Shown piece after piece: positions 1 through 33,378 of a DNA stretch of 33,378 nt. The translations under genes and the position numbers were made by a program. Numbering within the stretch: the first letter of the stretch is position 1; every line of letters begins with the position of its first letter. Source of the DNA: Escherichia phage EC.P3; the sequence record PQ657771.1. One strand, given 5' to 3'. The notes below the pieces were generated by a model, which saw nothing but the letters and a program-made list of their open reading frames with translations, searched no databases and was not told the DNA's origin.

Positions 1-347
1 ATATTAGCCGCAGTTTCTTCAAGCTCTCGCCAGCGGTCAACAAGGCGAGCGGTGAACTCTGGCGACAACTGGGCAACAACAACAATACTATCTCGCTTAC
101 CTTGTTCGCCTTCGAAGACGTAATGCTCGTACTGAACATTGAACCCTAAGTTATTGATTCTTTCGGAAACCTCAATTTGAGGAAGCCGGATAACACCATT
201 TTTAGCCAGCGTTTCGATGGTACGTTTCACATTGTCATGACGCTTACCCACCAACTCAGCGATTTCAATGCTTGTCATTTTGATGGCATTGCCATTTATT
301 AACTCATTCATCGTCTGGTATTGAAGGGTTTGGGATGGGCTAAGCAT
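1..347 (-). CDS. Rha-like regulatory protein, N-terminal part; 3' end runs off window start and is frame-continuous with 32967..33378
   Basis: ATG at 347..345 overlaps upstream stop (ATGCTTAG); translation MLSPSQTLQYQTMNELINGNAIKMTSIEIAELVGKRHDNVKRTIETL resembles Phage_pRha HTH domain; open to position 1. Confidence 0.6.
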   Translation of the reverse strand, partial: MLSPSQTLQYQTMNELINGNAIKMTSIEIAELVGKRHDNVKRTIETLAKNGVIRLPQIEVSERINNLGFNVQYEHYVFEGEQGKRDSIVVVAQLSPEFTARLVDRWRELEETAAN

Positions 348-753
348 GGCTTTCACCATTAAAAAGTCGCTTGTAAGCATCAATGTCTCGTTTTGCTTCA
401 CCAAGCTTTCGTCTTAATTCCATGTTTTCTGATTCAAGCTTTTCCATGTCTTGCTGGTATCGATCGCGGTGTTCTTTCCATGCTTTTCGATACGCCTTCA
501 TGTATGTCGTATTGGCCTTTCTCTTTGCCTGACGAACCGCATGGTGGTTTTTCACAAACCAGTCAGGGTCGTTAAATGCTGCTCTGGCGCATGTATACCA
601 ATAATTTGTTGCCTCCCTGTTTAGCCAATAAATACTGATAAATGGCAACCGGATAGACACCATTTTTCGTTGTGACTCTTTCTCGCCAAACATGTGTCCT
701 TTTTTGATGCTAAGGCCAAATCCAGGTTGAATTAAAAGCATTGTCAGCCTCAT
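340..753 (-). CDS. hypothetical protein with basic coiled-coil C-terminus
   Basis: Start moved to internal ATG at 753 preceded by AGGAGGG and ATGA-overlapping the stop of 750..1046; no recognisable family. Confidence 0.45.
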   Translation of the reverse strand: MRLTMLLIQPGFGLSIKKGHMFGEKESQRKMVSIRLPFISIYWLNREATNYWYTCARAAFNDPDWFVKNHHAVRQAKRKANTTYMKAYRKAWKEHRDRYQQDMEKLESENMELRRKLGEAKRDIDAYKRLFNGESHA

Positions 754-1046
754 GCCGCCCTCCTGACGCCCTGCCCGATCGCTATCAATGCCGCTTTGGA
801 TACGGTAGTAAACATCCGTCGAGGACTGATGAACGGTCGCCAAATCAGCAGCATGGAGCCTTTGCTGTTTCCCTTCTTCTCCAGCCCCGTCGATGGTTCG
901 ATAAAATTAATCCGTCCATCAGTGATAATGCGAACTTCGTCGACACTCTCCAGAGCCTTGCTGAACCATCCGACTGACATATCCTCTGGCACAAGCATCA
1001 CTACCGTCTGTCGCTGTTGTATGCACTGCTCAGCGGCTTTTTCCAC
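750..1046 (-). CDS. hypothetical protein
   Basis: 98-aa ORF downstream of cII in the slot where lambdoid phages normally carry replication genes; no recognisable family. Confidence 0.4.
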   Translation of the reverse strand: MEKAAEQCIQQRQTVVMLVPEDMSVGWFSKALESVDEVRIITDGRINFIEPSTGLEKKGNSKGSMLLIWRPFISPRRMFTTVSKAALIAIGQGVRRAA

Positions 1047-1277
1047 CCACGGCCTGATATTGCTGTACGGTGGGTTATTCCAGATTGCACCGTGGCTTAC
1101 CCACTCAGAATTGAGCGCGTCGTCGGCCTCAGTTAGCCAGTGAGCACACAGAGCATTTTTGTCGCTCGCTGCCGAATCCAGCCAGAATCCAAACTCAATA
1201 TCCAGTGCATCAAAAAGCCAAAGCGGCGTTTGCCAGCAGTCCTTGTCGTGTGCTGGCGTATTTGATTTGATAGTCCC

Positions 1278-1574
1278 TCAGAATTGCATATCAATTTGCT
1301 TAAAATCCTCGGTGGCGGCCGGGGATTTTTTCTTTGTGATTTCATCAAGCGCATACTTAAAAGCCCTGCTAATCGGACTGATGTCTGATGCCATTCCGAA
1401 AGCACACAAGACCGAAGCAATAAATCTCCAGTCCGTTCTGCTTATCTTCGATTCATGACAGCCAATCATCTTTGCCAGACCGCGCTGGGTAAGCGTTGAT
1501 AGGTTGATGAGTAAATCTGTTTCTGCGCGATCAACGTCACGCTGTGATAGTTTGCTGTAACTTGTTCGTTCCAT
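1278..1574 (-). CDS. cII: CII-like transcriptional activator
   Basis: Translation ends KKKSPAATEDFKQIDMQF, matching the lambda CII C-terminus KKRPAATERSEQIQMEF; correct position after cro/nutR. Confidence 0.8.
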   Translation of the reverse strand: MERTSYSKLSQRDVDRAETDLLINLSTLTQRGLAKMIGCHESKISRTDWRFIASVLCAFGMASDISPISRAFKYALDEITKKKSPAATEDFKQIDMQF

Positions 1575-1612
1575 TTCTTAAGATTTCCAATAGTGAATAG
1601 TTAGTTGAAAGG

Positions 1613-1630
1613 TATGCGTGGAAACGCATA
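1613..1630 (-). terminator. tR1-like hairpin between nutR and cII
   Basis: Perfect inverted repeat TATGCGT-GGAA-ACGCATA; weak U-tract, so probably rho-dependent or partial. Confidence 0.35.
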
Positions 1631-1659
1631 TGGCCTTAGTTGGTCAGATATCTTGGGAC

Positions 1660-1705
1660 TCGCTTTTCAGCGACGTAGGACGAATGTCCGTTGTTACAAA
1701 GAGCG
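1660..1705 (-). promoter_or_regulatory. nutR (boxA 1691..1705, boxB 1660..1673)
   Basis: Minus-strand CGCTCTTTGTAACAA (boxA-like) followed by hairpin TCGCT-GAAA-AGCGA (boxB-like), immediately after the cro stop; mirrors nutL. Confidence 0.6.
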
Positions 1706-1715
1706 GCTCCGCTTA

Positions 1716-1931
1716 TTAAGCGGCTTTGTGTTCCGGCGGGAACACGTCATCAAGACTTACTTTTGCGCCTAACTTATTTAGGCACGCAACAAGAGCACGG
1801 CATGTTTTAAGGTCTGGGAAGCGACGACCAGATTCCCAATGTCCGATAGCTCCCTGTGTGCATCCAACTGCCTTAGCAAGTGTTGTTTGAGAGATATTCA
1901 GTGACTCTCGATATTTTCGTAGGTTGCTCAT
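1716..1931 (-). CDS. cro: Cro-like HTH repressor
   Basis: Start moved to ATG 1931 (MSNLRKYRESLNISQTTLAKAVGCTQGAIGHWESGRR) preceded by GGAGGG; XRE-type HTH; divergent from CI-like gene. Confidence 0.7.
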   Translation of the reverse strand: MSNLRKYRESLNISQTTLAKAVGCTQGAIGHWESGRRFPDLKTCRALVACLNKLGAKVSLDDVFPPEHKAA

Positions 1932-2047
1932 ATGCCCTCCATAGTAACCTCGAATAAAAAATACAATATGTACTTTCCAAATACAAGCAAAAATACACAT
2001 TGTGCATGGATGGTTCCAGTACAGAGCGTAATAATAAGGACATGAAA
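1932..2047. promoter_or_regulatory. oR-like divergent promoter/operator region (pR and pRM equivalents)
   Basis: 116-bp AT-rich spacer between divergent cro and CI-like genes; contains CAATATGTACT, a motif recurring at pL, and repeated AATACA units. Confidence 0.5.
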
Positions 2048-2338
2048 ATGAAATGGTATGAACTGGCTAGATCCAGAATGAAAGAGCTCGGCATAACTCA
2101 AGAGAAGTTAGCCGAAGAGCTAGGTATGACGCAGGGTGGGATTGGACACTGGTTGCGCGGATCTCGTCATCCATCTCTTAGTGATATTGGTGTGGTGTTT
2201 AAATACCTTGGTATTGATAACATATCATTCAACCACGACGGGACATTTTCACCTGTTGGCGAATACTCATCGGCCCCAGTTAAAAAACAAGTGATAGGAA
2301 GTAAGTTTTATGTTGACGGCACAGTCAACTTGGCATAG
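2048..2338 (+). CDS. CI-like HTH repressor, short form without LexA/S24 autocleavage domain
   Basis: Start at ATG 2048 (AAGGA 7 nt upstream); MKWYELARSRMKELGITQEKLAEELGMTQGGIGHWLRG is an XRE HTH; about 97 aa, too short for a C-terminal peptidase domain. Confidence 0.6.
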   Translation: MKWYELARSRMKELGITQEKLAEELGMTQGGIGHWLRGSRHPSLSDIGVVFKYLGIDNISFNHDGTFSPVGEYSSAPVKKQVIGSKFYVDGTVNLA

Positions 2339-2351
2339 ATTAATTAAACCA

Positions 2352-2412
2352 AGCCCAGCCCCGTTCGCAGACAATTGTTAATATCTGCATAACGGCTCTG
2401 GGCTATTTTTTT
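2352..2412 (+). terminator. long-range stem-loop plus U-tract between repressor and NYN gene (possible attenuator)
   Basis: AGCCCAG (2352..2358) pairs with CTGGGCT (2398..2404), enclosing an inner GCAGA/TCTGC hairpin, followed by ATTTTTTT. Confidence 0.4.
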
Positions 2413-2421
2413 GGGACTCTT

Positions 2422-3279
2422 ATGAAGAAAGCAGCAATTTTAATTGATGCGGGTTTTTTCATGCAGCGTGTTCATGCTACGCATCGTAAACACTTCGCCG
2501 AGCATGAACTGACTGCGCAATGCATAATGAAAGTAATATGGTCAATGGTTCTTTCCCATCTTAATGGAAAACGTCAATCACAAGAACGTAGGGAACCGCT
2601 TGAGCTTTATAGAATTTACTTCTATGACTGTCCACCACTCGACATTCAAACACGCCTTCCACTTCCTGAGCCTGGCAATAAGACGCCTGGTCGCAAGAAT
2701 TTCAAACTCGAAAAATCATATATTCTGAGAACGGAGCTGCATGAAGAGTTAAGAAAAACTCGAAAAACAGCCTTAAGATTAGGGAATCTTGTTGATAATA
2801 AGCGATGGCAACTAACTACATTCTCCCTTGATGCTCTGATGAAAGGAACGAAAAAATGGGATGAACTGACAAATGATGATTTTTACTATGACATCAAACA
2901 AAAACAAGTTGATATCAAGCTAGGGATGGATATCACGACTTTAGCTTATGAAAAACTTGTTGATGTAATTGTCCTTGTTGCTGGGGACTCAGACTTTGTG
3001 CCTGCCGCCAAACACGCCAGAATTAAAGGTATTGATTTTATTCTTGATCCACTAAGACAGAATGTTACCCCATCACTGTCAGAGCACATTGATGGAGTTC
3101 AGTCATACAGCTTGATATCAGGACTTGCCGATGCTTTACATGTTGAGCCAGACCCGGCACCTGACTGGTGGGAAGATCGAAAAAAAGGCAAGCCTAGAGG
3201 AAAAAACAATAGCGGTAAACGCAGGTATGGAAACACTCAAGCTGAGTCTGCAAAGAAACATCAAAGAAATAAACGATAA
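2422..3279 (+). CDS. NYN-domain (PIN-like) putative nuclease with Lys/Arg-rich C-terminal tail
   Basis: N-terminal AILIDAGFF and later VLVAGDSDFVPAAKHARIKGIDF are NYN/LabA hallmarks with conserved acidic residues; C-terminus KKGKPRGKNNSGKRRYGNTQAESAKKHQRNKR; in the cI-to-N interval. Confidence 0.75.
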   Translation: MKKAAILIDAGFFMQRVHATHRKHFAEHELTAQCIMKVIWSMVLSHLNGKRQSQERREPLELYRIYFYDCPPLDIQTRLPLPEPGNKTPGRKNFKLEKSYILRTELHEELRKTRKTALRLGNLVDNKRWQLTTFSLDALMKGTKKWDELTNDDFYYDIKQKQVDIKLGMDITTLAYEKLVDVIVLVAGDSDFVPAAKHARIKGIDFILDPLRQNVTPSLSEHIDGVQSYSLISGLADALHVEPDPAPDWWEDRKKGKPRGKNNSGKRRYGNTQAESAKKHQRNKR

Positions 3280-3288
3280 TCCCATCAA

Positions 3289-3314
3289 CCCGGCCACCGA
3301 GCCGGGTTTTCTTT
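3289..3314 (+). terminator. rho-independent terminator after NYN gene
   Basis: CCCGGC-CACCGA-GCCGGG followed by TTTTCTTT, 10 nt after the stop. Confidence 0.7.
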
Positions 3315-3447
3315 GCCTCACGCCCCCACCTAAAGCACGCAATTCTGATCTCTCCTTACATCGCCGAGGCGATACACCCACGCTAAAAAACAACACTATT
3401 AAATACAAAGCGTTATAAAAAATCACCCCATTTTAGAACAAATTGTA

Positions 3448-3476
3448 TTGACCCAATAAAGTACATATCGTACTAT
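3448..3476 (+). promoter_or_regulatory. pL-like promoter overlapping operator-like inverted repeat
   Basis: TTGACC, 17-nt spacer, TACTAT; inverted repeat AGTAC-ATATC-GTACT overlaps the -10. Confidence 0.5.
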
Positions 3477-3522
3477 TTAACCGTCAGCAGGACGCTGTAA
3501 GCCAAACGGAGCAGACTGGCAG

Positions 3523-3568
3523 GCTCTTTAAACAACGTCGAACACTCGACTACGTGGCTGAAAAGCCA
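3523..3568 (+). promoter_or_regulatory. nutL (boxA 3523..3535, boxB 3555..3568)
   Basis: GCTCTTTAAACAA (boxA-like) then TGGCT-GAAA-AGCCA hairpin with GNRA-type loop, about 100 nt upstream of N. Confidence 0.65.
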
Positions 3569-3666
3569 GATCACCCAACCATATAAGCTGTGGGATGCAA
3601 TGCCGAAGCAACCGTCTCAGGAGGAGCTTCGAGATTGCATCGCCAAAGTTTATTCGGGAGGAATCT

Positions 3667-3939
3667 ATGTCCAGAAAAACAGAATTTAAAGGCACCGCAG
3701 CTTCTCGCCGTAGAGCTCGTCGTGCAAACCTGCAAAGTCAGGAGGCGATCAGCTCTGACAAGCTACACAGGCCAACCCCTTCACGAGTGGTCTTACAATG
3801 CAAACGCAAACCAGTAATGAGAGCAGAAGTAATAACACTGACAACGTTGACCAGAAAATATGAAGGCTCAACTTGTCTTCCAAATGTAGCCATTTACGCG
3901 GCAGGCTACAGGAAATCCAAACAGCTGACAGCAAGATGA
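3667..3939 (+). CDS. N: N-type transcription antiterminator
   Basis: Start at ATG 3667 after GGGAGGA; arginine-rich motif TAASRRRARRANLQ; C-terminus LPNVAIYAAGYRKSKQLTAR matches the P22 gp24 C-terminus as recalled. Confidence 0.85.
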   Translation: MSRKTEFKGTAASRRRARRANLQSQEAISSDKLHRPTPSRVVLQCKRKPVMRAEVITLTTLTRKYEGSTCLPNVAIYAAGYRKSKQLTAR

Positions 3940-4033
3940 CTTGTGTTGGTCGCCAGAAAATGAAATTAGGCAGCAAACCACTTATTTGGGATGTGGGGGC
4001 CTTTTTATATCAATCAAACAGAAGGAGCATCCT

Positions 4034-4204
4034 ATGCAACAGTTCGCTATTGCAGGGGCGGCATCGGTTCGCCCTTTCAACCCGATTTTATCGGTACAGC
4101 ATTCACGAAAAAATATTTTAACCGGAGCAGACTTTAAACAACCAAGAATGAAAAGTTTGCTCGAAAAGCTTTGGGATATTTTGAAACAACAAGGCCGTCC
4201 ATGA
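4034..4204 (+). CDS. hypothetical small early protein
   Basis: ATG 4034 with AGGAG 6 nt upstream; 56 aa; first gene after N. Confidence 0.4.
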   Translation: MQQFAIAGAASVRPFNPILSVQHSRKNILTGADFKQPRMKSLLEKLWDILKQQGRP

Positions 4205-4285
4205 GTTTTACGGATAACTGGTCAGACGAAGAATTCATTCGTCAGATGAACAAAATGCTCAATCAGCACAAAGAACAGGAGAAAG

Positions 4286-4597
4286 ATGATGATTCTGACT
4301 CTGAATGATAAGCGTGAAATATCGCAAATAATCGCAAGTTTTACTGATGAAGATTACGAACGAATCAACAGTGAAGTTGATCGCCTCTGCAAACGTTGCG
4401 ACCCAATAAGCGAAATGCTTCGCTCATATAAACCAGATGAACACACTAAGGACGCTATCGACTGGCTGGAAGATGATGACTGTAACTATCAGGAAAAAGC
4501 CGCTGAATGGTTCTGGGATGCAATAACCGAAAGAGTTAAGGCTGAATATGCCTTCGCAATATTCAAGCGCAGACACATTTTTGGAGAAGCAGCATGA
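4286..4597 (+). CDS. hypothetical acidic protein
   Basis: GGAG-type RBS; stop overlaps recT start (ATGA). Confidence 0.5.
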   Translation: MMILTLNDKREISQIIASFTDEDYERINSEVDRLCKRCDPISEMLRSYKPDEHTKDAIDWLEDDDCNYQEKAAEWFWDAITERVKAEYAFAIFKRRHIFGEAA

Positions 4598-5496
4598 GCA
4601 ATATCGTTGAATTCGTTAAACAGCAGGAGCAGTTATTCTGCGGAGCATTGACTGAACAGACGGTGACATGGGCTAAGGAAAGCCAGTTTGCAATTCAGTA
4701 TTTCCAGAAAAACGATTACCTGGCTAAAACGGCACTGGCAAATCCAACCAGCGCACAGAACGCCATCATCAATGTTGCGGCGATCGGCATCACCTTAAAC
4801 CCGGCCAGCAAACTTGCTTATCTAGTTCCGCGCGACGGCATGGTTTGCCTTGATATCAGCTATATGGGATTACTTCATCTTGCGCAATCGACAGGCTCAA
4901 TTAAGTGGGGGCAATGCAAACTGGTGTACTCAAACGACACCTATGAATCAAATGGCCTTGATTCAGCACCAACTCACAAATACAACGCATTTGGAGAGCG
5001 AGGCTCTATTGTTGGTGGTTATTGCACGGTAAAAACAGCAGATGGTGACTACCTGACTGAAGAAATGAGTCTGGCAGAAATTAAAGCAGTGGAAGCAACG
5101 AGCAAGGCAAAGAATGGACCGTGGAAAACATTCTGGGAAGAGATGGCGCGTAAAACAATAGTTAAACGCGCCAGCAAATACTGGCCTAAAGCCCAGCGAC
5201 TGGATAATGCCATTCACCTGCTTAACGAAGATGAAGGTATGCATCAGGAACCAGTTATGCCGCACAAATCAGAGGAAGATATCCGCGAAGATGAACGGAA
5301 ACTCCAGCAGGAAATAATGGATAAAGCACAACTTCTTTGCGATGAAATGGCTCAGGCAGAAAACATGGATGATTTGAAGCGATATTTTGCAGAAGCATAT
5401 CGCCTGACATCTGGAATGAAATTGCAGCAGAACGTACAAGCCATTTACATAGAATGCAAAGCGAAACTGGAGGTTGCCAGTGAGCAAACTGTATGA
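4594..5496 (+). CDS. recT: RecT-family single-strand annealing recombinase
   Basis: 300-aa translation with RecT-like core (NGPWKTFWEEMARKTIVKRASKYWPK). Confidence 0.85.
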   Translation: MSNIVEFVKQQEQLFCGALTEQTVTWAKESQFAIQYFQKNDYLAKTALANPTSAQNAIINVAAIGITLNPASKLAYLVPRDGMVCLDISYMGLLHLAQSTGSIKWGQCKLVYSNDTYESNGLDSAPTHKYNAFGERGSIVGGYCTVKTADGDYLTEEMSLAEIKAVEATSKAKNGPWKTFWEEMARKTIVKRASKYWPKAQRLDNAIHLLNEDEGMHQEPVMPHKSEEDIREDERKLQQEIMDKAQLLCDEMAQAENMDDLKRYFAEAYRLTSGMKLQQNVQAIYIECKAKLEVASEQTV

Positions 5497-5962
5497 AATA
5501 GCCAATGAATACGCAAAGCTGATGGATTCAGATTTAGAGCCAGAGATGATTGCTGACACAATAGAAGGCATGGAAGGAGAATTTACCGATAAAATAGAGC
5601 AACTTCTTGCCATTATTAAAAATGAATCTGGTTATGCTGAACGCCTCAAGGACGAGGCAAAGTCGCTGAATGAGCGAGCCGCAGTAATTCAAAATAAGAT
5701 TGACAGCATCAAATCATATATAGCGTCATCGCTTGAAATGGTTGGCAAGAAAAATATTCGAGCAGGTATTCACCAGGTAACAATCCGCAAACCGTCAGAA
5801 ATTGTAGAAATCATCGACTCAAGCGCCATTCCTCCTGAATACGTTGAGTTTGAAACGACAATTAAAGCCGACAAACTGGCAATCAAACACCAACTAAAAG
5901 CAGGAATAAATATCCCCGGCGCTCAACTCAAAGTTGGGAAACCTTCACTTCTTATCAAATAA
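5474..5962 (+). CDS. Gp157-like protein
   Basis: 162-aa coiled-coil protein directly after and overlapping recT, the usual position of Sipho_Gp157-family genes; family assignment from memory. Confidence 0.5.
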   Translation: MPVSKLYEIANEYAKLMDSDLEPEMIADTIEGMEGEFTDKIEQLLAIIKNESGYAERLKDEAKSLNERAAVIQNKIDSIKSYIASSLEMVGKKNIRAGIHQVTIRKPSEIVEIIDSSAIPPEYVEFETTIKADKLAIKHQLKAGINIPGAQLKVGKPSLLIK

Positions 5963-5973
5963 CGGTATCGACT

Positions 5974-6204
5974 ATGAAAAAGACTCCATGGGAGAAATGG
6001 GAAGTCGATTTCTTGCGCGAAGTAGCGGCGACAATGCCAGTTGAAGTTATCGCTGAAAAACTGGAAAGGACTGAAAAAGCAGTAATGGCGAAAGCAACAA
6101 GGATTGGCGCTGACATTGTTAGCCGACTTCGTGGAAGACGCTGGACAAGAGCCGAAGTATCACTTTTCGGTAAGTTCTCCGCAGAAGAAAGTGAACAAGA
6201 TTGA
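5974..6204 (+). CDS. hypothetical protein
   Basis: 76-aa ORF with plausible RBS; no recognised family. Confidence 0.4.
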   Translation: MKKTPWEKWEVDFLREVAATMPVEVIAEKLERTEKAVMAKATRIGADIVSRLRGRRWTRAEVSLFGKFSAEESEQD

Positions 6205-6598
6205 CTATCAGGCACTGCGTGAAAAGGCAGAGAAAGCCGGTGAAGATAAGTGGCAGGCTAAAAAAATAAATGGTGATTTTTTCGTTATTCGTCACGGTAG
6301 CTATACAAGACAGCATGGCTACACATCGTATCAACCCATTGCGGAGATTGATTGTAAGCCAGTCCGGGATTTTGTTGCCAAGGCTAATCCGGCTACCGTG
6401 CTGGAATTACTGGATGAACTGGAAGCAGCAAAAAAGCGCATTGCAGTATGGCTATTGCCGCAAGTTACACCATGCATCTCTACTGTGATTGTCGCCAGTG
6501 TACAAATGGTAAATATCAAACGCCAGACTTCGGTGAATATATCGGTACGTCATGGGCTGGCTGTGCAAAAGAGGCGCGCAAGGATGGCTGGCGAATAA
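6191..6598 (+). CDS. Ead/Ea22-like protein
   Basis: GTG start assumed at 6191; motif NPATVLELLDELEAAKKRIA typical of Ead/Ea22-like proteins; 3' part overlaps ORF 6448..6657 in another frame. Confidence 0.5.
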   Translation: MNKIDYQALREKAEKAGEDKWQAKKINGDFFVIRHGSYTRQHGYTSYQPIAEIDCKPVRDFVAKANPATVLELLDELEAAKKRIAVWLLPQVTPCISTVIVASVQMVNIKRQTSVNISVRHGLAVQKRRARMAGE

Positions 6599-6657
6599 GC
6601 AAAGACAAAACGCGTGCTTTTGCGCCCGGGCATAAAGTTTTGAGGATTAACAAATGA
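6448..6657 (+). CDS. small Cys-rich protein; may be frameshifted C-terminus of the Ea22-like gene
   Basis: MHLYCDCRQCTNGKYQ; overlaps previous ORF by about 150 nt; stop overlaps next start (ATGA). Confidence 0.35.
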   Translation: MAIAASYTMHLYCDCRQCTNGKYQTPDFGEYIGTSWAGCAKEARKDGWRISKDKTRAFAPGHKVLRINK

Positions 6658-12455: not shown

Positions 12456-13334
12456 TCAGTAGTTATGTACTGAAGGAGGTAATTCTTTATTCTTAAGTCT
12501 CATCCATGCGGAAAGATTCGTTGGTCCGTCTGGCTCATTGATATCAACATCTCGTGTGTGATTGATTAAAACGTCTCTCGCCATATCGATAATACGGGAG
12601 AACTCATAACCGCAGTCATGACATCTGCCGGAATAGTTCGATTGAATTTGTTTTAGCGCCGGATACAGTTCGCGGAATAATGCCTGTGAGCGGTTGGCAT
12701 AATCCCATAACCATACAAGGCTGTTTGCTTCTTTTGCAGAAAGCTCGTTGGTTTTCTTCTCTTGTTTGCCGATGAATTCACCTTCAAGCACTACCCTGTG
12801 GATGTACTCTACGGCTTGCGGGATTTGTTCAATTGAAAGTTCATCAATGCTGTCAATACCAAAACGCTGATGAACCATATTGTATGCATCGTCATAGCGA
12901 AGTCCTTTCTTTCCTACCAGCATGTTTACTGCATCGCGTAGCGGTGTTCTTTCCTCAACAGTGGTTTTCTTTCCTTTTACATACTCGCCATGTTTGCGAA
13001 TTGAAGGCAGAACTTCTGCTGTTACCCACTTGCGGAATTTGTGCGGGACTGAACCTTTATTGACTGCATCGCGGCAGCGCAGAACCAATGTATACATACC
13101 TGATTCGCTCACAATGCTTAGATTCTGCTCACCACCAAGGGTGTAACTTAAAGTTACTCCCTTTTCATCGTCATCAAGTGCAGTAAGCGCCTTGCGTGAG
13201 TTAGTCAGGGTTAAAGCATCACAAACATCTTTTGCTACAAACCACGGCTCACCGCACTTGTTGATGACGCGGATTTCACTGTCGCCGAATTTGAAGATGG
13301 TGAAATCGTTTTGTGCCTTTGCTATACTTTTCAT
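12456..13334 (-). CDS. ant: antirepressor (BRO-N domain)
   Basis: [33 protein letters not shown] is a BRO-N signature; downstream of arc as in P22 immI; start set to ATG 13334 (AGGAAAT upstream), alternative TTG at 13400. Confidence 0.7.
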
Positions 13335-13396
13335 GTCAATATTTCCTAATCCGATTTGTTGATGCCGAAGCCCTGACTGTTCCCGCAGTTGGGGCT

Positions 13397-13666
13397 TCAA
13401 CGTTTTTCCACTTCATTTTGAATTTGCTTAAGTAGCATATTTGTCTCGTCAAGCCTCTTGTTAATACGGTCAAGGCTTTCTACTAAATCGTTATGTGCAT
13501 GTGATACTTCGTAATTTGAGACTGATTTCTTTTCCTCTATCGTCTTTGTCAATCGTTCCCCTGATTGATACATATTGATTAACGATGTAAAAATCACGAG
13601 CAAGCAAACTACAATGATTGCGCCAGACAAAAATTGTAAAGAACGATCAAGCAATGACACCTTCAT
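13397..13666 (-). CDS. small membrane-anchored coiled-coil protein
   Basis: One N-terminal hydrophobic helix ([19 protein letters not shown]) then heptad-like charged segment; coupled to the arc stop; lies between arc and ant. Confidence 0.5.
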
Positions 13667-13815
13667 ACCGCCACCCCCTCTCTCTTCAGGCTGTCTATCA
13701 GGCGCTTGATAACCTCTGAGTTAAACGACCTGCACTCTTCCTTTGCCTTGCTACCGATAGCATCCTTTAACGACTGCGGCATCCTTACCAAAATCTTACT
13801 TATTTCTTTCTCCAT
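13663..13815 (-). CDS. arc: Arc-like ribbon-helix-helix repressor
   Basis: Start at ATG 13815 with GGAGGG 5 nt upstream; MEKEISKILVRMPQSLKDAIGSKAKEECRSFNSEVIKRLIDSLKREG matches the Arc fold and RS.NSE motif. Confidence 0.75.
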   Translation of the reverse strand: MEKEISKILVRMPQSLKDAIGSKAKEECRSFNSEVIKRLIDSLKREGVAV

Positions 13816-13929
13816 GTTACCCTCCACACAAACAACTCTTTTCGAATACAAAAGATAGCAAAGTGAGTATATCTAGTCAAAATTTTTTTGCATACACTTT
13901 GATATCAAATTGAATACCAAAGGTGTGAT
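13816..13929. promoter_or_regulatory. divergent Pant/Pmnt-like promoter-operator region
   Basis: 114-bp AT-rich spacer between divergent arc-like and mnt-like genes; inverted repeats CAAAGTG (13859..13865) and CACTTTG (13895..13901). Confidence 0.5.
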
Positions 13930-14178
13930 ATGGCAAAGGGTGTGTCAATTTCTCCAACTACGGTAAGAATCCCTGAATCTTTACGCGAGGCTCTTGCTGT
14001 CAGAGCATCAAAAAATGGTCGCTCTGTTAACTCCGAGATCGTCATGATTTTGCAAGCCGCGATTGATGAAGATAGGTCGCCAAAGTCAGTTGAGTCATTT
14101 GCTCAGCAAGAAGCTGACAAATTCAAAGAGGCGCTGCTTGAGACGCTAAAGACCATGTATGGTAAGGATGAAAAATAA
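13930..14178 (+). CDS. mnt: Mnt-like ribbon-helix-helix repressor
   Basis: 82 aa; RIPESLREALAVRASKNGRSVNSEIVMILQAAI and C-terminal KFKEALLETLKTMYGK parallel P22 Mnt, including the tetramerisation tail. Confidence 0.8.
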   Translation: MAKGVSISPTTVRIPESLREALAVRASKNGRSVNSEIVMILQAAIDEDRSPKSVESFAQQEADKFKEALLETLKTMYGKDEK

Positions 14179-25911: not shown

Positions 25912-28113
25912 TTACTGCTGTGGTTGTTGCTGAGTTGATTTTTGCAGGATGCTGCTGATGTCCATGCGCTGCGCATGGCCTTGCGCCTGACTTTTCAGGA
26001 CAAGCTCTGCATCAGCACGGGCATTATCTCCTTGCTGTTGCTGGAACTGTCCGAGCAGTTTCAGCGCCTCACGGATATCAGATTTTTGCTGGCTATCGGC
26101 AGATGCGAGGATTTTCACAACATTTGCCGCTGCAACCTGAGCATCCGTCTGTGCCTGGAATGCTTTAACCTGAATGGCTGCCTGCTCGTTCTGCGCTTTC
26201 TGCAATTCAGCCTGACCAGCAAGAAGCTGACCTTGCGCTGCAACCATAGCCGGATCTGGCTGACTGGCCTGTTGTTGTTTCGCCTGTTCAACCATCTGCT
26301 GTTCTTCAGGCGTTCTCGGCTTGATAACGCCAGACAGAAGCAACTGATTGCGGTTGTATTCTTTCAGGTCGTCCATCCCTTCGCCGTCCATATTGTCGAG
26401 AATCATCGACGATACAAGGTCGTGCTTCGGCGTTCCTGGTGGGATAAGTGCCAGCATGGAAAGTAACGACTTAACCGTTGCGTCACGGCGAGTAGCGAAC
26501 GACTGACCGACATCGACAGTCACTTCATAGTTACCCTGCGAAAGGTCGTTAAGCGCGATAACCTGCCCTGTCTGACGGTCAACCACTTCACCAGTCATCA
26601 GCGCCACGTCATCGCTGCCGTCCTCATTAACGATACGCATCGGCGTATCGCTGCCATAGACTTCACGCGCCATAGAAAGCCACACAACGCCAGCGCGACG
26701 CATAGATTTAGCCATGTTGTCCATGTAGATATAGGACTGCGTGTCCATCCGGTTAAAAATGCTATCAACGGTATCAGTAGCGACGTTGCTCGGCATGTTC
26801 TCAAGCTGCGACGCACCTGTAATTTGCTGAATAGCCGTTCCGGTGTACTGCAATAGCCCGGCAAGAGCTGGAGGCATTTGTGTCGGAGGCGTATAACTGC
26901 TGACCTGAGCCTGCGCAGTAATATCTCCGTTTTTGTTTTTCAGACTGACCATCGGCAGGAACGCCGGGCGCTTTTTGTTGCGCTCCGCCCAATGAGTGGC
27001 GAGAGGACCAGGAATCATGTCAACATCAACTACAGGAATGCCATCACCGCCAGCCTGAGTAGCGTTATCTGCAATCATGGAAACCATCAGGTTCTCAAGA
27101 CGCTGTGCATCCATCGCTTTTGCTGCGTGTCCTTCAATTCGCTCCTGATTATCAACAAATGAGCGACGCCCATATACCGGGATGAGAGGAATATGTTCGC
27201 CCGGAATACGCTTCGGTTCTTCCAGCCATTCAGCGCCAGACAGAAGACCGCAATAAACGCGGCGCTTCTTCACCGTTCGCTCGCCAATCAGTTCGAATGC
27301 ACCATCGGTCAGTTCGTCGACAATATCTTTTATTTGCTCTTCATCATAGATTGCCGTTTCTCCGCTAACAGGGTTGCGCCACGCCGTGATCTTCACCTTC
27401 TCTATGCGAACTTCGTAGTAGCGTCCAACATAGATGGCATCTGGCGTTGACCAGTCATATTGAGTGCCAGTGTTATCACGAGAAAGGCTTGCCGCGGTGG
27501 AATCAGGGTATTCAGCCTCGAACGCTTTGGGCGTCATGGAGAACATTTCCATAGCCCACATAGCATCAGAGCGGTCATATTGCTTGCTGTCCTGATCAAA
27601 GAAGACGCATGTCGCTGGGTCGTAAACAGGAAGAAGGCTGATGCGTCGCTGCTCGTTACTCGGATCCATTTCATCTTCGTAATCGGCACACATGCGGAAA
27701 CAACCGAATCCGCCCGTTACAGCATCATCAAATGCGTTATCACACGCTTCGCCACCGGATGTTTCCTGATAGTCAGCGCGGAATTTGCCGTTCATCTTTT
27801 CGGCTAACGCTTCCGATGCCTTATCGTCCTTAGGCCTGAATTTAACGCTGATGCGATTCTGTCGATACTCGCCAATGATGCGATCACATTCACGGGCAAT
27901 CTTATTCAGTTCAAAGCGCGGGTAATGCTCAAACCTGCCTTCATCAAATGAGTAACCAGCGTTTGTGCTGCCTTCCCACTGTGCGCCGGACACCCGGACG
28001 AAACGTTGAGCCTCAATAATCTGCTCACGCATATCCTTCGTTGCTGACCAGGCATTATCAAAGTTGCACAGCACCTTGCGATGCCAGTCAGTCATCTTTC
28101 TATCATCAGCCAT
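25912..28113 (-). CDS. portal protein
   Basis: Start set to ATG 28113 ([10 protein letters not shown]; GGAG upstream; overlaps terL stop); Gln-rich C-terminal barrel region as in P22 gp1. Confidence 0.9.
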   Translation of the reverse strand: MADDRKMTDWHRKVLCNFDNAWSATKDMREQIIEAQRFVRVSGAQWEGSTNAGYSFDEGRFEHYPRFELNKIARECDRIIGEYRQNRISVKFRPKDDKASEALAEKMNGKFRADYQETSGGEACDNAFDDAVTGGFGCFRMCADYEDEMDPSNEQRRISLLPVYDPATCVFFDQDSKQYDRSDAMWAMEMFSMTPKAFEAEYPDSTAASLSRDNTGTQYDWSTPDAIYVGRYYEVRIEKVKITAWRNPVSGETAIYDEEQIKDIVDELTDGAFELIGERTVKKRRVYCGLLSGAEWLEEPKRIPGEHIPLIPVYGRRSFVDNQERIEGHAAKAMDAQRLENLMVSMIADNATQAGGDGIPVVDVDMIPGPLATHWAERNKKRPAFLPMVSLKNKNGDITAQAQVSSYTPPTQMPPALAGLLQYTGTAIQQITGASQLENMPSNVATDTVDSIFNRMDTQSYIYMDNMAKSMRRAGVVWLSMAREVYGSDTPMRIVNEDGSDDVALMTGEVVDRQTGQVIALNDLSQGNYEVTVDVGQSFATRRDATVKSLLSMLALIPPGTPKHDLVSSMILDNMDGEGMDDLKEYNRNQLLLSGVIKPRTPEEQQMVEQAKQQQASQPDPAMVAAQGQLLAGQAELQKAQNEQAAIQVKAFQAQTDAQVAAANVVKILASADSQQKSDIREALKLLGQFQQQQGDNARADAELVLKSQAQGHAQRMDISSILQKSTQQQPQQ

Positions 28114-29609
28114 CATCCAACTCCGCAAGGTATGTTGTAGCTTGAGTAATCAATCTCTTTAGGATCTTTGATGTCTCGCATCTGTATTGCAAAACGCCTC
28201 ATCATGTAGCCATAGCGAACAGCAGAAAGGATGTCGTCATTTAGCTTGACGATCTTCCCGTTCTCATCGCGGTGATACAGACGAAACTCTTCAAAGAATG
28301 GCTCGCAGGTGTTAAATACCTTGAAACGACCGTCGAGCATCATGTCGCGTATCTCTGCTATCCCGGGTTCGACCGCATTACCTCCATCAGGCCATGTTGC
28401 ATGATCTGGCAACATGTCGAACCCAGCTTCGGCGTATTGTTCCTTGAGCTGAGCGCCGCCTCCCTTTTCGTGCTGATGCCCGTCATGAGGCCAAGCCGTA
28501 GGGGTGTTTTTGCTCCATGCTTTAACAGCACTCCATGCCTCTGTCGCCTTCTTCTGTTTGGCCTTCCAGACGCGAGAAAGATAAATCACGTCCTCGTCTT
28601 TATCCCACCAAAGCTGGATATGTGCCTGTGGGTGATCCCATCCGAAGTCCATTGCATTGATGACGTAGAAGTGATCAGGACACTCGAACGGCTGACACTT
28701 AATCGTCTCTTCCGGTATCTGGAAGATTCGACCGCTACCCATCGTAGGAATACCGCGAGCACGCGCCTCTCTCTCATGCTCGGGATAGGATGCGATGATT
28801 TGCTCTTTCTGTTCGTCTGTGTAGTGCTCAGCGTCATAGATGGTCATGTTGACCACTTTCTGCGACTTGCTGGGATTCTTCAGGAACTTGGTAACAACGT
28901 CAGACATCCCCATCAGCGGGGTAAACGTCAGAATTGAGAATTGCCCGTATTTGTTGGTACGGGTAAGACCTTCGCCATAAATGCTGTATGGTGGCTCTTC
29001 GTCAAACCACACGCCGTGGATTGTGTCACCCTGCCAGCGAGCGCGGCCTTGCGAGTATGGTTTGAAGTAGCAGATTGAAATGCCATCTTCAACGCCATCA
29101 GCCGTGTGATGCTTAACCAGAAGATGATCAACAAGGTTCGGAAAGAAAGGAGACTTCTTCCAGCTAATGATGTCTTCTTTAGGTATGGAACCGTAGCCTG
29201 GCTCATCATTCTCTTCGATACGACCACACAGGATGCGTTGAGTCGTTTTGGTTACAGTCTCGTTTGTCTCGCCGCCAATCCAGAAGACAACAGGCTCATA
29301 GAAACGCTTACCTTTCCACTCACCGCCATATTTACCATCAGCAGGATAGCCTTTTGTGCCCGGGTAACGCCCGGTAAGGTGAAACGCGACTTCAGCAGCA
29401 CCAGTAAATGACTTACCAAGCTGGTTACCAGCCATAAAACATCGCTCTGGATAGTCATGCCCGGCGTCGATGAACTCACGCTGTTTGCTGTATGGCGTAA
29501 ATTCATATAGCAGGTGTGTGTTACGGTAGTTCTCTTCTTCTTCGAGTAGCTCGAGCAATTCGATTTGCTCTTCGTCGCTCAAGTTATCAAGAATCGCGTC
29601 CAGTTCCAC
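28113..29609 (-). CDS. terminase large subunit
   Basis: 498-aa translation matches P22 gp2 as recalled ([37 protein letters not shown]...); track start at 29609 appears to be GTG. Confidence 0.95.
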
Positions 29610-30075
29610 GGTTGAATAGCTCCTTGATACGAGAGCGCCGCTTATCGCGATCTCCCTTATCAGGTGTCACGTCTTCAACTTGCGACTGCTCTTTGAGGCC
29701 CAAATCACGGGCGATGATGTTAGCGTTGAGAAGGTCAGCGGCTGCGCCAGAGAATTTCTGGTCGTAGATGATGTCTTCCGCTCGTGATGTGACGTCAGAA
29801 AAACCTTCCATTGACCGGAAGGTTCCCCATGTTTGCCTGGTGATATCAAGGAAGGTACACAATCCTGAAATAGTCATGGCTCGCATCTTAGGGACATTAG
29901 CCTTAATTATTTCTCCCTGATATGAAAATACCTTACCCTCCCATAGCGGGTTATCATCAGCCCACTCGAAGTATTCACAACAAGCAGCCCACAGCGCCTC
30001 AGGCGATTCGAATTTAGGATTTCGCCCATGACTACTGCGGGCCTCCCAAAATCGGTTGCCCTTTGGTGCTGCCAT
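29587..30075 (-). CDS. terminase small subunit
   Basis: 162 aa; [40 protein letters not shown] and C-terminal [19 protein letters not shown] match P22 gp3 as recalled. Confidence 0.95.
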
Positions 30076-30154
30076 ATTGATTATTTCCCTTCTGCTTGCT
30101 TATCCCATTCATCGCGGAATTTGGATGGGTTGTCGAAACCTTGAGTTGCCATGT

Positions 30155-30397
30155 TTATGCTCCGGTAGTGAACAGGTCTAACGCTTCCTTCGATTTACGC
30201 ACCGCTTCGATTGTGCGGGTCGTGATATCTGAATTAGCGCCGCCTGACTGGAAGTGAATTTTGAATAGCTCAAGCTTCAGCTCGTCAGTGCCAATGAACT
30301 GAAATGCTTCTTCTGCGGCTGCGTTCTGGTTCATGACCAGTTTGTAAATCTCTAGCTGGAATTTCTGTTCTTCAGTCATGGGAATAATCTCTGCCAT
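30155..30397 (-). CDS. hypothetical soluble protein upstream of terS
   Basis: 80 aa, no hydrophobic segment. Confidence 0.5.
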   Translation of the reverse strand: MAEIIPMTEEQKFQLEIYKLVMNQNAAAEEAFQFIGTDELKLELFKIHFQSGGANSDITTRTIEAVRKSKEALDLFTTGA

Positions 30398-30754
30398 TGT
30401 TGGCTCCGTTTATCCGTTAAAAGGGATATCAGTTAAGTTATCCCGTGTAGGGTATAAGCCATTGTCGAGACCACTCATTGAATGGTCTCTGCAATAACCG
30501 ATGTCTTTCCATCAGTCCGCCACCACAAAGAATCTTTTTTGCCATAAGGCAGGAGGTTCATCTTTCAGTGGCTGCCAGTGTTATTTCCCCACTTACTGGC
30601 TTGGGTTGTTTCGCTGTACTGCCGTAACTGGTTTCCCAGAATAAATTCCGGTTTCATTATCAAGCCCACCCGTAGATGGGCTTTGTAATGGATAGCTGTT
30701 GCTCAGTTCTCGTAATGCTTTGATTTTTCCGATAACGCAGTTTTGCGTTTGCCA

Positions 30755-31276
30755 TCAGCACGCGATATCGAGAGTCAGCTGCAGTTGCTCGCGCCAGTAC
30801 TCGACATTTGCTTCAATAACCGGCTTATCCCATCGCCAGCGAGCCATCTCTCTTGCCCCATTGCTGGCTTTTGATTTCCGGTCATCGCGAATGCGACATG
30901 CTTGCTCATATTTCTGCTGCTCAGTCAGTTCACCGCGAAGCAGACTATCAATGTGCAGGTCGCACCATACGGAGAATTTCGGATCGCACCATCTTGCAAA
31001 GGCAACTGATAACTTTGGGTGCAGCCATGTTCCGCCTCCCCTGTCCTTTCGTGCCTTGCTTGTTTTTACATACCCGGAATCACGGGTATGTAGAATTTTC
31101 GATGGTTCACCTGAATAAACCTCATCCAGAGCTCTAACGTATTCGAGAGTTTCAGCGTTGGACAACCAGTGATCCAGACGCTTCCCGAAACGTTTTGCAA
31201 TATCAGTGGCATTAATCCAGCCATCCGTATTGAAGCGGATAGGTTCGCCTTTGTAATTCAGTGGAACGATATTCAT
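30755..31276 (-). CDS. KilA-N domain protein
   Basis: GEPIRFNTDGWINATDIAKRFGKRLDHWL and GGGTWLHPKLSVAFARWCDPKFSVW fit the KilA-N pattern. Confidence 0.65.
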   Translation of the reverse strand: MNIVPLNYKGEPIRFNTDGWINATDIAKRFGKRLDHWLSNAETLEYVRALDEVYSGEPSKILHTRDSGYVKTSKARKDRGGGTWLHPKLSVAFARWCDPKFSVWCDLHIDSLLRGELTEQQKYEQACRIRDDRKSKASNGAREMARWRWDKPVIEANVEYWREQLQLTLDIAC

Positions 31277-31422
31277 AGCGTCTTACCTTTTAGAAAGATG
31301 AGCCTGTTCGCACAGAAAAGCCGCCCCGAGATGGTCGCCACCATATACGGCAGTTCTCAGGCTCAGCTTTCTGAAAGACTCGGGATTGTTACGCGCTGCG
31401 ATGCGCTGTTTACTGCAGATGT

Positions 31423-31446
31423 AAAAAAGCCCCGCGAATGCGAGGC
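31423..31446 (-). terminator. rho-independent terminator downstream of Rz region
   Basis: Minus-strand GCCTCGC-ATTC-GCGGGGC (one G-U pair) then TTTTTT. Confidence 0.6.
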
Positions 31447-31620
31447 TAAATCCTGGTGTTTTTGATGACTGGCTCTTATCTCAACGCAGCCCCTTACCGC
31501 GCGCCAGATGCTCAATATCAAGCATCAGCAATGAGATGTTTAATCTGGATTCACTCCAGAAGTGATCATCACCCTGTCTACAGAGCCAGATGTGAAGGAT
31601 GATGAGTAAAATTATCGCTA

Positions 31621-32007
31621 TCATCGAAGGCATTGCGTCCTGATGTACTCCTGCAGGTAGTTAACCTGCGCGGTTATCCTGTCGATTCCACTTCGGAGAC
31701 GGTAATAATTGAGTTCAGCATCTGCTGTAAGTCTTGGGCTTTCTCCATCGCCCATGCTGCTGGCTCCGGTCGTTGACTTTGCACAGATGGCGGCGACTTG
31801 CAGGCGCTTACGACCAGCAGAAACATCAGCACGGAGACTTTCGATAGTCGCGTTAGCATCAGCAAGCTCCTTTGTGTATCTGGCGTCAAGTTCTGCTACA
31901 TCACGTTGACGCTTCTGCATGTCAGCGATTGTGGATGTGGCCTTATCGCGCTGCTCTTTATAGGCGATTGTGGCGACCGGTGCTGATCTCCGGTTTGCTG
32001 CAACTGC
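31621..32007 (-). pseudogene. Rz: Rz (i-spanin) remnant lacking in-frame N-terminal membrane anchor
   Basis: Frame reads AVAANRRSAPVATIAYKEQRDK...MQKRQRDVAELDARYTKELADA...QCLR, homologous to the lambda Rz periplasmic domain; in-frame TAG at 32008..32010 and no start before Met 31920; a Rz-anchor-like stretch SALIVVV sits in another frame. Confidence 0.5.
31674..31859 (-). CDS. Rz1: Rz1-like o-spanin lipoprotein embedded in Rz frame +1
   Basis: MLTRLSKVSVLMFLLVVSAC with lipobox LVVSAC then Pro-rich segment; embedded as in lambda. Confidence 0.6.
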   Translation of the reverse strand: MLTRLSKVSVLMFLLVVSACKSPPSVQSQRPEPAAWAMEKAQDLQQMLNSIITVSEVESTG

Positions 32008-32063
32008 CTACAGCGGGCTACGTGGCCACACCGAATCCAGCGAAAGATTCTTGCCCTTACACA

Positions 32064-32321
32064 TCAGCCTGTGCATTCACCACAACGATAAGAGCACTGC
32101 GCGGCACCTTTCACCAATTCCGCGAGGTCTGCGGGTCGTCTTCCCCTCTTGCCCTGTTTGACTATCAGGACGCCGTTAACTATTGCGTGACGCTCGCCTT
32201 TGCTGTCTCTGTTGTACTTGAGCACTGTTCCTCTTGCACAGGAAAGCCTCCTCGCCACTTCGGTCTGATTGCCTCGTGTCTGGATAAGAAGTTCTGGTAT
32301 CGTTTGAATTGTGGCGTTCAT
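32064..32321 (-). CDS. ninH: NinH-like protein with about 25-aa non-homologous C-terminal extension
   Basis: First 57 aa (TIPELLIQTRGNQTEVARRLSCARGTVLKYNRDSKGERHAIVNGVLIV) resemble lambda NinH; extension runs toward the Rz remnant. Confidence 0.6.
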   Translation of the reverse strand: MNATIQTIPELLIQTRGNQTEVARRLSCARGTVLKYNRDSKGERHAIVNGVLIVKQGKRGRRPADLAELVKGAAQCSYRCGECTG

Positions 32322-32680
32322 ACGTTCTCCAGTTCGGTGATTTTTATTCCAAGCCTTCCGCCTGGTACTTTCACACCACGAATTACGCGAATGTCATCGA
32401 ATTGCTCGTCGTCTTCCGCAAATCCGGCGTGGATAAGGGAGTCGAGTAAACCTTTCAGGATGTTGTCGAGGTCGCGGCGGCGGGAGTCTGGAACGTCTGC
32501 GATGACTTTGATACGGACTCGTGATTTGGTGAAAATGTCTAACTTGAGTTGGCGAATGATTTGCTGAACGTCTTTTCGGTATTTCTGGCCTTTATCGCTG
32601 ATGTAGTATTGGCTTCCCCGTCTTCGCCAGTAGGTATTCACCGACGGCGGGTAAGGAAGCACAAACTGATATTCGTTCAT
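32318..32680 (-). CDS. rusA: RusA-family Holliday junction resolvase
   Basis: 120 aa, start with PYPPSVNTYW, acidic catalytic region; coupled to flanking nin genes. Confidence 0.85.
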   Translation of the reverse strand: MNEYQFVLPYPPSVNTYWRRRGSQYYISDKGQKYRKDVQQIIRQLKLDIFTKSRVRIKVIADVPDSRRRDLDNILKGLLDSLIHAGFAEDDEQFDDIRVIRGVKVPGGRLGIKITELENV

Positions 32681-32967
32681 GGCTTAATCTTCCCCTCCTT
32701 CAGCAGTATCGCCTGCGTCCTGATCACGCCTTCGAGGTGGTAAAGTCTGGCGTCTTTGTTGTCGAGATTATGGGTGCGTCGGTCGATTTCATCGTGACAC
32801 GCGCTACAAGCCCATGCGCCGATCAGGTCGTCAGGCTTCATTCCCGTTCCGCAAATTCCAGCCATCCGGTAATGTGCCAGAACTGTAGTTTCAGGATTGC
32901 CATTGCATACGCCGTAAATACGTACCTGACATTCTCTGCCGCGTGCTTCTTTGCGTAGATTGGCCAT
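32677..32967 (-). CDS. DUF1364 (YbcO-like) nin-region protein
   Basis: RGRECQVRIYGVCNGNPETTVLAHYRM...GAWACSACHDEIDRRTH matches the YbcO pattern as recalled; directly upstream of rusA as in DLP12. Confidence 0.7.
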   Translation of the reverse strand: MANLRKEARGRECQVRIYGVCNGNPETTVLAHYRMAGICGTGMKPDDLIGAWACSACHDEIDRRTHNLDNKDARLYHLEGVIRTQAILLKEGKIKP

Positions 32968-33378
32968 TAAGCAGCCTCCCCTGTTACTTTCAGCATTCCG
33001 TTATCGAGCAGCTTTCTGGTCAGCCACTGTTGGCCACGCCCGGTGATTTTTGTGGTGAACGATATCTGTATTCCGTGATTTGTATTGACCGCTGTTTCTT
33101 TCACTGTGAAATAGCCGCGATCCATATATTCCTGCATTGGCACATTGCGCCGGGAACCTGAAGCAATAAGGATTTTGTGATCGCGCATCCACGCAAACAG
33201 TTTGTTTTGACCAATTCCAACAACCTTTGCAAAGTTTCCAATCAAAATTCCGCTGGCCTCGCCAACGCGATCGGCAAACTCAACTTTAGGTGCGGCAATT
33301 GCGAGCTGGTTTTCCAGTTGCATTTTCTGCTCAGCAAGATCAGCAGCAAGGCGCAACGCTTCTGGTAGCGTTTTGGGG
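32967..33378 (-). CDS. KilAC-type antirepressor C-terminal part; 5' end runs off window end and is frame-continuous with 1..347
   Basis: PKTLPEALRLAADLAEQKMQLENQLAIAAPKVEFADRV linker then KilAC-like core; ORF open to position 33378. Confidence 0.65.
   Translation of the reverse strand, partial: PKTLPEALRLAADLAEQKMQLENQLAIAAPKVEFADRVGEASGILIGNFAKVVGIGQNKLFAWMRDHKILIASGSRRNVPMQEYMDRGYFTVKETAVNTNHGIQISFTTKITGRGQQWLTRKLLDNGMLKVTGEAA

Follow-up and report, generated by a model that had tools for sequence, protein, structure and literature searches.

Salmonella phage P22 and the P22-like podoviruses (CUS-3, HK620, Sf101 and Kapi1) combine an early region organised as in lambdoid phages with an immI region and a P22-type module for the head, the ejection proteins and the tailspike, and replication, late-activation and lysis modules are present in all of them. 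The virion DNA of P22-like phages is packaged by headful, and their assemblies are hence circular. The sequence of Escherichia phage EC.P3 (PQ657771.1), a stretch of 33,378 nucleotides that was analysed at its full length and is referred to here as the window, is that of a lambdoid coliphage of the P22-like type, in which the minus strand carries the late genes; it shares the head, ejection-protein and tailspike module, the immI region and the early-region organisation with these phages, whereas the replication, late-activation and lysis modules are absent from it as given. The window was found to be a closed circle, opened at an arbitrary point within the antirepressor-type gene roi, which lacks twelve internal intervals that match phage lambda. 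Very probably, it represents the circular assembly of a sibling of Escherichia phage E212 whose lambda-matching stretches were deleted after assembly by a VecScreen-type screen based on the basic local alignment search tool (BLAST).

Phage E212 (MZ043897.1; Lederbergvirus; 38,252 bp), which stems from sewage in China, was the nearest relative of the window. Positions are given below with the prefix w for the window and the prefix e for the E212 record. The two sequences aligned at 99.8-100% identity and were colinear round the entire circle, and in a base-by-base map 31,848 of the 33,378 window bases were placed on E212 with zero mismatches. Both have the same structural, integration, recombination and nin genes, although the records were opened at different points of the circle. 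The window is, however, 4.9 kb shorter: E212 keeps twelve lambda-like intervals (6,091 bp in total) which the window lacks, and the 1,530-bp immI segment (ant/arc/mnt) of the window is replaced in E212 by 313 bp of unrelated sequence. The morphogenesis genes lie as follows:

w10550-30075, minus strand: P22-type morphogenesis module (TerS, TerL, portal, scaffold, coat, gp4/gp10/gp26-like, gp14/gp7/gp20/gp16-like and tailspike proteins); the span also encloses immI and accessory genes

This module was free of excisions, with 0% removed from each structural gene and 100% identity to E212, and was 94-97% identical to those of CUS-3, Kapi1 and HK620. The window phage belongs with the P22-like phages (Lederbergvirus) and is a near-twin of E212. 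Since the immI segment differs, the source of the sequence is a sibling of E212 and not E212 itself.

For the analysis of the window ends, the last 1,500 and the first 1,500 bases were concatenated and the minus-strand frame was read across 33378/1. The initial annotation, which was made from the window alone, had claimed that the two ends join in frame, and this was borne out by the concatenation, which gave one open minus-strand frame reading ...RWRELEETAAN-I-PKTLPEALRLAADLAEQ... across the join. The features at the join, and the integrase gene, are as follows:

w32967-33378, minus strand: 3′ part of roi (codons 104-240 and the stop codon; KilAC/ANT domain), continuing from w1; identical to e9507-9918
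w1-311, minus strand: 5′ part of roi (ATG at w309-311, codons 1-103 and two bases of codon 104; Rha-type N-terminal domain); identical to e9196-9506
w304-347, minus strand: ninF remnant (34 nt of the 5′ end and 10 nt of the 3′ end), with its ATG at w345-347 fused in frame to roi
w8529-9707, minus strand: tyrosine integrase (Arm-DNA-bind_3 and Phage_integrase domains), internal to the window

Additional sequence between the window ends was looked for and none was found: w33378 and w1 correspond to the adjacent positions e9507 and e9506 at 100% identity, and in the E212 alignment no base is missing or duplicated at 33378/1. A query of 735 nt, composed of the end followed by the start of the window, matched 219 phage records, in 214 of which at least 80% of the query was covered, and it aligned in a single piece at 98-99% identity in HK620, HK633, HK140 and others. 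Two open end-frames are expected to share the same phase in one of three cases at random; as an exact full-length protein match extends across the join, the join is not attributable to chance. The window is thus a closed circle and stems from an assembly that was circular or circularly permuted. As the integrase gene lies internally, the window is not a prophage excised from a chromosome at att sites. In the proposal of a complete circular genome of about 33.4 kb, the closed circle, which is colinear with the whole of E212, was correct, whereas completeness did not hold, given the twelve absent intervals.

The junction open reading frame (ORF) had been predicted to comprise about 253 amino acids and to start at 347. 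An ATG is present at w345-347, but the length of this ORF is 252 amino acids, and the natural start lies at w311, which yields a protein of 240 amino acids. The first 12 codons of the longer ORF (MLSPSQTLQYQT) derive from ninF, whose ATG at e9027 corresponds to w347; a 133-bp excision at w313/314 joins this ATG to roi and thereby creates the 252-amino-acid ORF with its apparent start at 347. No exact match to the ninF-roi fusion was obtained in a collection of 15 billion proteins, in which the exact 240-amino-acid Roi was found on 72 contigs, the chromosome of E. coli ETEC1738 among them. The Rha-like N terminus and KilAC-type C terminus that had been recognised in the initial annotation both exceeded their Pfam cut-offs in the 240-amino-acid protein (Phage_pRha, PF09669, residues 12-99, 36.7 bits versus a cut-off of 29.9; ANT/KilAC, PF03374, residues 126-228, 115 bits versus 25.3). 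Full-length homologues were abundant, and those in HK620, HK633 and HK140 are annotated as DNA-binding protein Roi or anti-repressor Ant. The gene lies in the nin region between ninF and the DUF1364/rusA genes and encodes a typical, well-known antirepressor-type protein of the Roi/KilAC kind. It resembles Roi of HK022 and the homologues in HK620 and HK140 in its DNA identity (98-99% to the roi genes of HK620, HK633 and HK140), its place in the nin region and its Rha and KilAC layout, with no biological difference from them; the window ORF is longer by 12 codons through the ninF splice. Judged by its 98-99% DNA identity to annotated roi genes, the product probably binds DNA and may affect lytic growth, as does Roi of HK022.

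The intervals absent relative to E212 are listed below. Each scar is given by the two window positions that flank it and carries no strand.

Scar 1, w313/314: 133 bp removed (e9061-9193; lambda 42297-42429); 75% of ninF (e9027-9203) removed
Scar 2, w746/747: 167 bp removed (e8461-8627; lambda ninE region); ninE-homologous stretch lost
Scar 3, w1273/1274: 2,427 bp removed (e5507-7933; lambda 38658-41084); O, P, ren and ninB lost
Scar 4, w2290/2291: 407 bp removed (e4083-4489; lambda cI, 37231-37637)
Scar 5, w3335/3336: 52 bp removed (e2986-3037; lambda 35727-35778)
Scars 6-8, w3988/3989, w3989/3990 and w4010/4011: 126, 193 and 39 bp removed (lambda ral region)
Scar 9, w6446/6447: 254 bp removed (e37515-37768; lambda ea22 region); Ea22-like gene (w6191-6446) loses its C-terminal half and stop codon
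Scar 10, w7918/7919: 255 bp removed (e35788-36042; lambda 29106-29360); ORF of 55 amino acids lost
Scar 11, w31966/31967: 1,116 bp removed (e11841-12956; lambda 44942-46057); holin, endolysin and the 5′ end of Rz lost
Scar 12, w32136/32137: 922 bp removed (e10749-11670; lambda 43886-44807); Q antiterminator, about 300 bp downstream and the NinH stop codon lost

Genes at or close to the scars are as follows:

w750-1273, minus strand: N6-adenine DNA methyltransferase, start codon missing
w1278-1574, minus strand: cII, intact, with its stop codon directly adjoining the methyltransferase gene that lacks a start
w1716-1931, minus strand: cro-like helix-turn-helix (HTH) regulator, intact, 71 amino acids
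w2006-2338, plus strand: truncated CI repressor (95 N-terminal codons with the HTH motif and an out-of-frame tail of 15 amino acids; LexA/S24-type C-terminal domain removed)
w31621-31966, minus strand: Rz (i-spanin), first 92 nt missing

The genes for O, P, Q, holin and endolysin were removed entirely (100%), 58% of cI (its C-terminal part) and 21% of Rz were removed, and several small early-left ORFs were also among the lost stretches. Scar 2 additionally removes the A of the ATG of the downstream gene (w340-746; 135 amino acids), scar 3 the first 4 nt of the methyltransferase gene including its ATG, and NinH, which has lost its stop codon, runs on as a fusion of 85 amino acids. The names ren and ninE were taken from the Prokaryotic Genome Annotation Pipeline (PGAP) annotation of the near-identical ETEC1738 prophage region. 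With O, P, ren, ninB, ninE, Q, holin and endolysin absent and CI, the methyltransferase and NinH damaged, the sequence as given cannot be a functional phage genome. The true genome would measure 33,378 + 6,091 = 39,469 bp (about 39.5 kb), which lies within the normal range of P22-like phages.

As many of the lost genes also occur in lambda, E212 was compared with the wild-type lambda genome (NC_001416). Lambda, a classic cloning vector and control, belongs to the vector sequences that screens of the VecScreen type target. Each missing segment corresponded to a stretch with 88-97% identity between E212 and lambda, and the matches to lambda that persist in the window are just four, all of them short and weak. 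In the first scoring, 6,086 bases were missing; every one of them fell inside lambda high-scoring segment pairs (HSPs) and none outside, an overlap that was reached by none of 20,000 random placements. Five of the cut ends were exact ends of homology and the remaining ones lay 2-66 nt inside it, which pointed to an alignment with a harsh mismatch penalty. The comparison was performed with blastn under VecScreen-type scoring (reward +1, penalty -5, gap costs 3/3), the default of VecScreen at the National Center for Biotechnology Information, and yielded 12 HSPs between E212 and lambda with a raw score of at least 33. Deletion of these 12 HSPs (6,091 bp) from E212, followed by reverse-complementation and rotation, gave the exact string of w1-12627 plus w14158-33378. 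Of 14 scoring schemes, +1/-5 with gap costs 3/3 was the only one to give 12 of 12 intervals and 24 of 24 ends, and its product alone contained exact copies of the window flanks. The other settings were rejected: with default megablast, default blastn, dc-megablast and the schemes +1/-2, +1/-3, +1/-4, +2/-5, +2/-7 and +1/-1, only 1-8 of the 12 intervals were recovered, and the window was regenerated by none of the ten schemes of this group that went through the cutting test.

VecScreen spans merged over gaps of less than 50 nt were likewise rejected: they reproduced nine cuts and left a 22-nt discrepancy, which was removed when cutting was performed per HSP. The leftovers of 1 nt and 21 nt between three adjacent HSPs are still present in the window (w3989-4010), which indicates that each HSP was cut separately and unmerged. 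The lowest score removed was 33, whereas the retained lambda hits score 23, 22 and 16; the best lambda score left in the window is thus 23 (w10361-10383), compared with 12 strong hits in E212 and 11 in the ETEC1738 prophage region. The window accordingly resembles the product of VecScreen-type trimming in that this scoring reproduces all cut ends and that hits above the strong-match score are gone while weaker ones are kept. It differs from usual practice, which is masking with N, trimming of ends or splitting of contigs, in that internal hits were deleted and the flanks joined. The parameter string +1/-5, 3/3 is routinely used in the screening for adaptors and vectors (PMC10172123).

In the explanation that we favour, a temperate P22-like coliphage (Lederbergvirus) would have been assembled as a circle and opened at an arbitrary point in roi; after assembly, every stretch scoring as a lambda match under +1/-5, 3/3 would have been deleted and the flanks butted together without a placeholder. 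Because lambdoid phages share modules with lambda at 95-99% identity, such a screen would remove real genes, namely O, P, ren, ninB, ninE, most of ninF, Q, holin, endolysin and the part of cI encoding the C-terminal domain. The disregard of the cuts for biology, with a start codon lost, a stop codon lost and essential genes gone, counts in favour of an artefact, and we infer that the removal was an in silico screening step applied after assembly, which may have been run by a submitter in reply to a contamination report, by a database pipeline or by those who prepared the sequence. Four points weigh against this explanation. The screening step is deduced from its footprint and not from the history of the record; the reference used here was wild-type lambda (NC_001416) rather than UniVec; the VecScreen rule for segments of suspect origin (less than 50 nt between hits) was not applied, as the leftovers of 21 nt and 1 nt remain, so that the tool may have been a custom script with the same BLAST settings; and the immI segment differs from E212, so that the excised bases are deduced from a sibling.

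Among the alternatives, the one that fared best, while still improbable, is that lambda-matching reads were filtered out before assembly and that the resulting zero-coverage gaps were closed by the assembler or a scaffolder. The removal of lambda control reads (spike-in) is common practice, and a filter of this kind would have the same target and produce the same overall pattern of loss. It would, however, give ragged edges and broken contigs, not 24 ends equal to the HSP ends under +1/-5 scoring, and it does not fit the single base kept between two adjacent HSPs (w3989). Moreover, the junction ambiguity at the scars was 0-10 nt, and there were no k-mer-length repeats over which a graph assembler could have jumped.

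A negligible probability was assigned to a natural origin of the scars, in which an E212-type phage would have given rise, through multiple deletions, to a defective or satellite-like, helper-dependent derivative. Microhomology of 3-5 nt was present at some scars, and headful packaging in P22-like phages would tolerate a shorter genome; yet twelve independent deletions would be needed with no substitution in the other 31.8 kb, and each of them would have to equal the extent of lambda similarity under one scoring scheme. We know of no biological process that measures similarity to lambda. In addition, the searches of public collections returned neither the tested junction proteins nor the string across scar 3. 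The look-up that returned intact Roi gave no exact match among 15 billion proteins for seven proteins that are scar-specific or truncated (nine sequences including start variants); all three start variants of truncated CI and the 85-amino-acid NinH fusion were absent from this collection. The scar 3 string was absent from IMG/VR, 185,579 GTDB genomes and JGI metagenome contigs, and scars 1-5 (w1-4100) were in one piece neither in any phage record nor in any of 5,426 complete E. coli genomes. The only E. coli genome that covered at least 80% of w1-4100 was that of ETEC1738, which aligned at 99.9% identity and was split into six pieces exactly like E212, the five scars of this region being the same breaks in its prophage.

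The reading of the window as a genuine, complete and functional circular phage genome of 33.4 kb has next to no probability and is effectively refuted. The ends do join perfectly within roi, and the structural genes, integrase, N, cro, cII and RecT are intact; against this, O/P, Q, holin and endolysin are absent, CI has no C-terminal domain, the methyltransferase no ATG and NinH no stop. The sequence is 4.9 kb shorter than a sibling that is identical at all 31,848 shared bases and falls below the 38-46 kb of its more complete P22-like relatives (E212, HK620, CUS-3, Sf101, Kapi1 and similar), and its gaps equal the lambda BLAST hits to the base.

The intact gene order was seen independently in the finished chromosome of ETEC1738, which carries a P22-like prophage beside a transfer RNA (tRNA) gene, tRNA-Arg (1612000-1661000). 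In its immunity, replication and nin regions, this prophage is 99.7-100% identical to the window and E212, whereas it differs from the window in its early-left module (lambda exo/bet/gam), integrase (IntS), immI and structural alleles (80-94%). It also has tRNA-Asn and tRNA-Thr genes between Q and the holin gene, which are found neither in E212 nor in the window; no tRNA genes of the ETEC1738 Q-S interval were detected in the window. The ETEC1738 prophage is a textbook case of lambdoid mosaicism. Mosaicism was visible among the compared phages, and lambdoid phages exchange modules with lambda-like phages, but the reverse scenario, in which the window shows the original state and recombination introduced twelve insertions from lambda into E212 and ETEC1738, is scarcely conceivable and effectively refuted, since every insertion would need to supply a missing start codon, stop codon or reading frame or else bring back an essential gene as a whole, and since the window arrangement was found nowhere else while that of E212 occurs in independent genomes.

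The immI segment and the accessory genes of the window comprise the following features:

w12628-14157, no strand: immI segment absent from E212, with ant (12456-13400, minus), an ORF of 89 amino acids, arc (13663-13851, minus) and a mnt-like gene (13930-14178, plus)
w14178-14714, plus strand: Clp-protease-like protein, on the opposite strand to the other two accessory genes
w14767-15189, minus strand: ORF of 140 amino acids without a Pfam match, adjoining the Panacea/SocA-like gene
w15195-15644, minus strand: Panacea/SocA-like antitoxin-domain protein
w30755-31276, minus strand: KilA-N domain protein of 173 amino acids between the lysis cassette and the small terminase gene, annotated as "DNA-binding protein" in E212

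Ant has Bro-N and P22AR_C domains, and two Arc-family genes were identified within w12456-14178. As in P22-like phages, immI (ant with arc and mnt) adjoins the tailspike gene. Other P22-like prophages of E. coli contained the segment uninterrupted at about 97% identity, and its left boundary (tailspike/ant) was exact in 50 IMG/VR contigs; both observations mark it as natural. Neither the window sequence itself nor the unspliced source genome was found in the collections searched, the best of the 50 IMG/VR contigs sharing the boundary being about 96% identical. The 313-bp filler of E212 (e30766-31078) was considered as a remnant of immI and rejected, as it showed no similarity to the window or ETEC1738. 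E212, which was isolated as a plaque-former and has no ant/arc/mnt, appears to be a natural immI-less variant of the window phage.

The three accessory genes (w14178-15644) occupy the place of sieA in P22, flanked by the gp16-like ejection gene and immI, and could form a PanA-type toxin-antitoxin or exclusion cassette. Between cI and N, at the position of lambda rexAB, the window encodes an NYN (RNase-like) protein of 285 amino acids (w2422-3279, plus strand), which could be a prophage-encoded exclusion or defence factor and is annotated as a split or partial NYN-domain protein in ETEC1738. The gene for the KilA-N protein adds to roi and ant, so that the genome has three separate antirepressor-like genes (Bro-N, KilA-N or Rha/KilAC); the counterpart position in ETEC1738 is occupied by a Rha family regulator. 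The integrase gene is transcribed in the direction of the late genes and not with the early-left operon, and no excisionase was found among the ORFs examined. Between the integrase and tailspike genes, the 23 nt of w10361-10383 match lambda 27473-27495 perfectly; this lambda stretch lies about 230 nt to the left of the lambda attP core. The GenBank annotation of E212 omits cro, ren and ninE, which were called by PGAP in the near-identical ETEC1738 region, as well as an ORF of 69 amino acids at w6448-6657, and for the E212 gene at e35429-35800 the true start probably lies 9 codons downstream of the annotated one, with a GGAGA motif followed by an ATG at w7933.

Klebsiella phage phiKp_30 (LC768498.2), an unusually short Lederbergvirus record of 33.7 kb, was considered as a second case of the same artefact and rejected, since it keeps six strong lambda matches together with Q and the lysis genes. 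It has no annotated integrase or CI-type repressor and encodes a replication-type protein of 968 amino acids. As phiKp_30 is unaffected, it provides no evidence that the artefact is widespread.

The biology of the window is not new: it is an ordinary known phage combined with a data-processing artefact. An in-frame closure of the ends inside a real gene does not prove completeness, and at face value the sequence would be reported as a 33.4-kb P22-like phage without replication genes, Q and lysis genes, with a repressor reduced to its HTH part and a NinF-Roi fusion, all of which are artefacts. Vector screens that contain lambda remove real genes when run on lambdoid phages. The footprint is recognisable, with gap ends equal to the ends of +1/-5 BLAST hits and no strong lambda hits left, and other sequences can be checked for it. 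It is possible, albeit doubtful, that the excision goes back to a screen run routinely against vectors or contaminants, with lambda counted as a contaminant, and not to a one-off edit. If so, other lambdoid phage and prophage sequences that passed through the same pipeline would silently lose replication, Q and lysis genes and gain artificial fusions, and analyses of gene content, completeness and mosaicism in lambdoid phages would be distorted.

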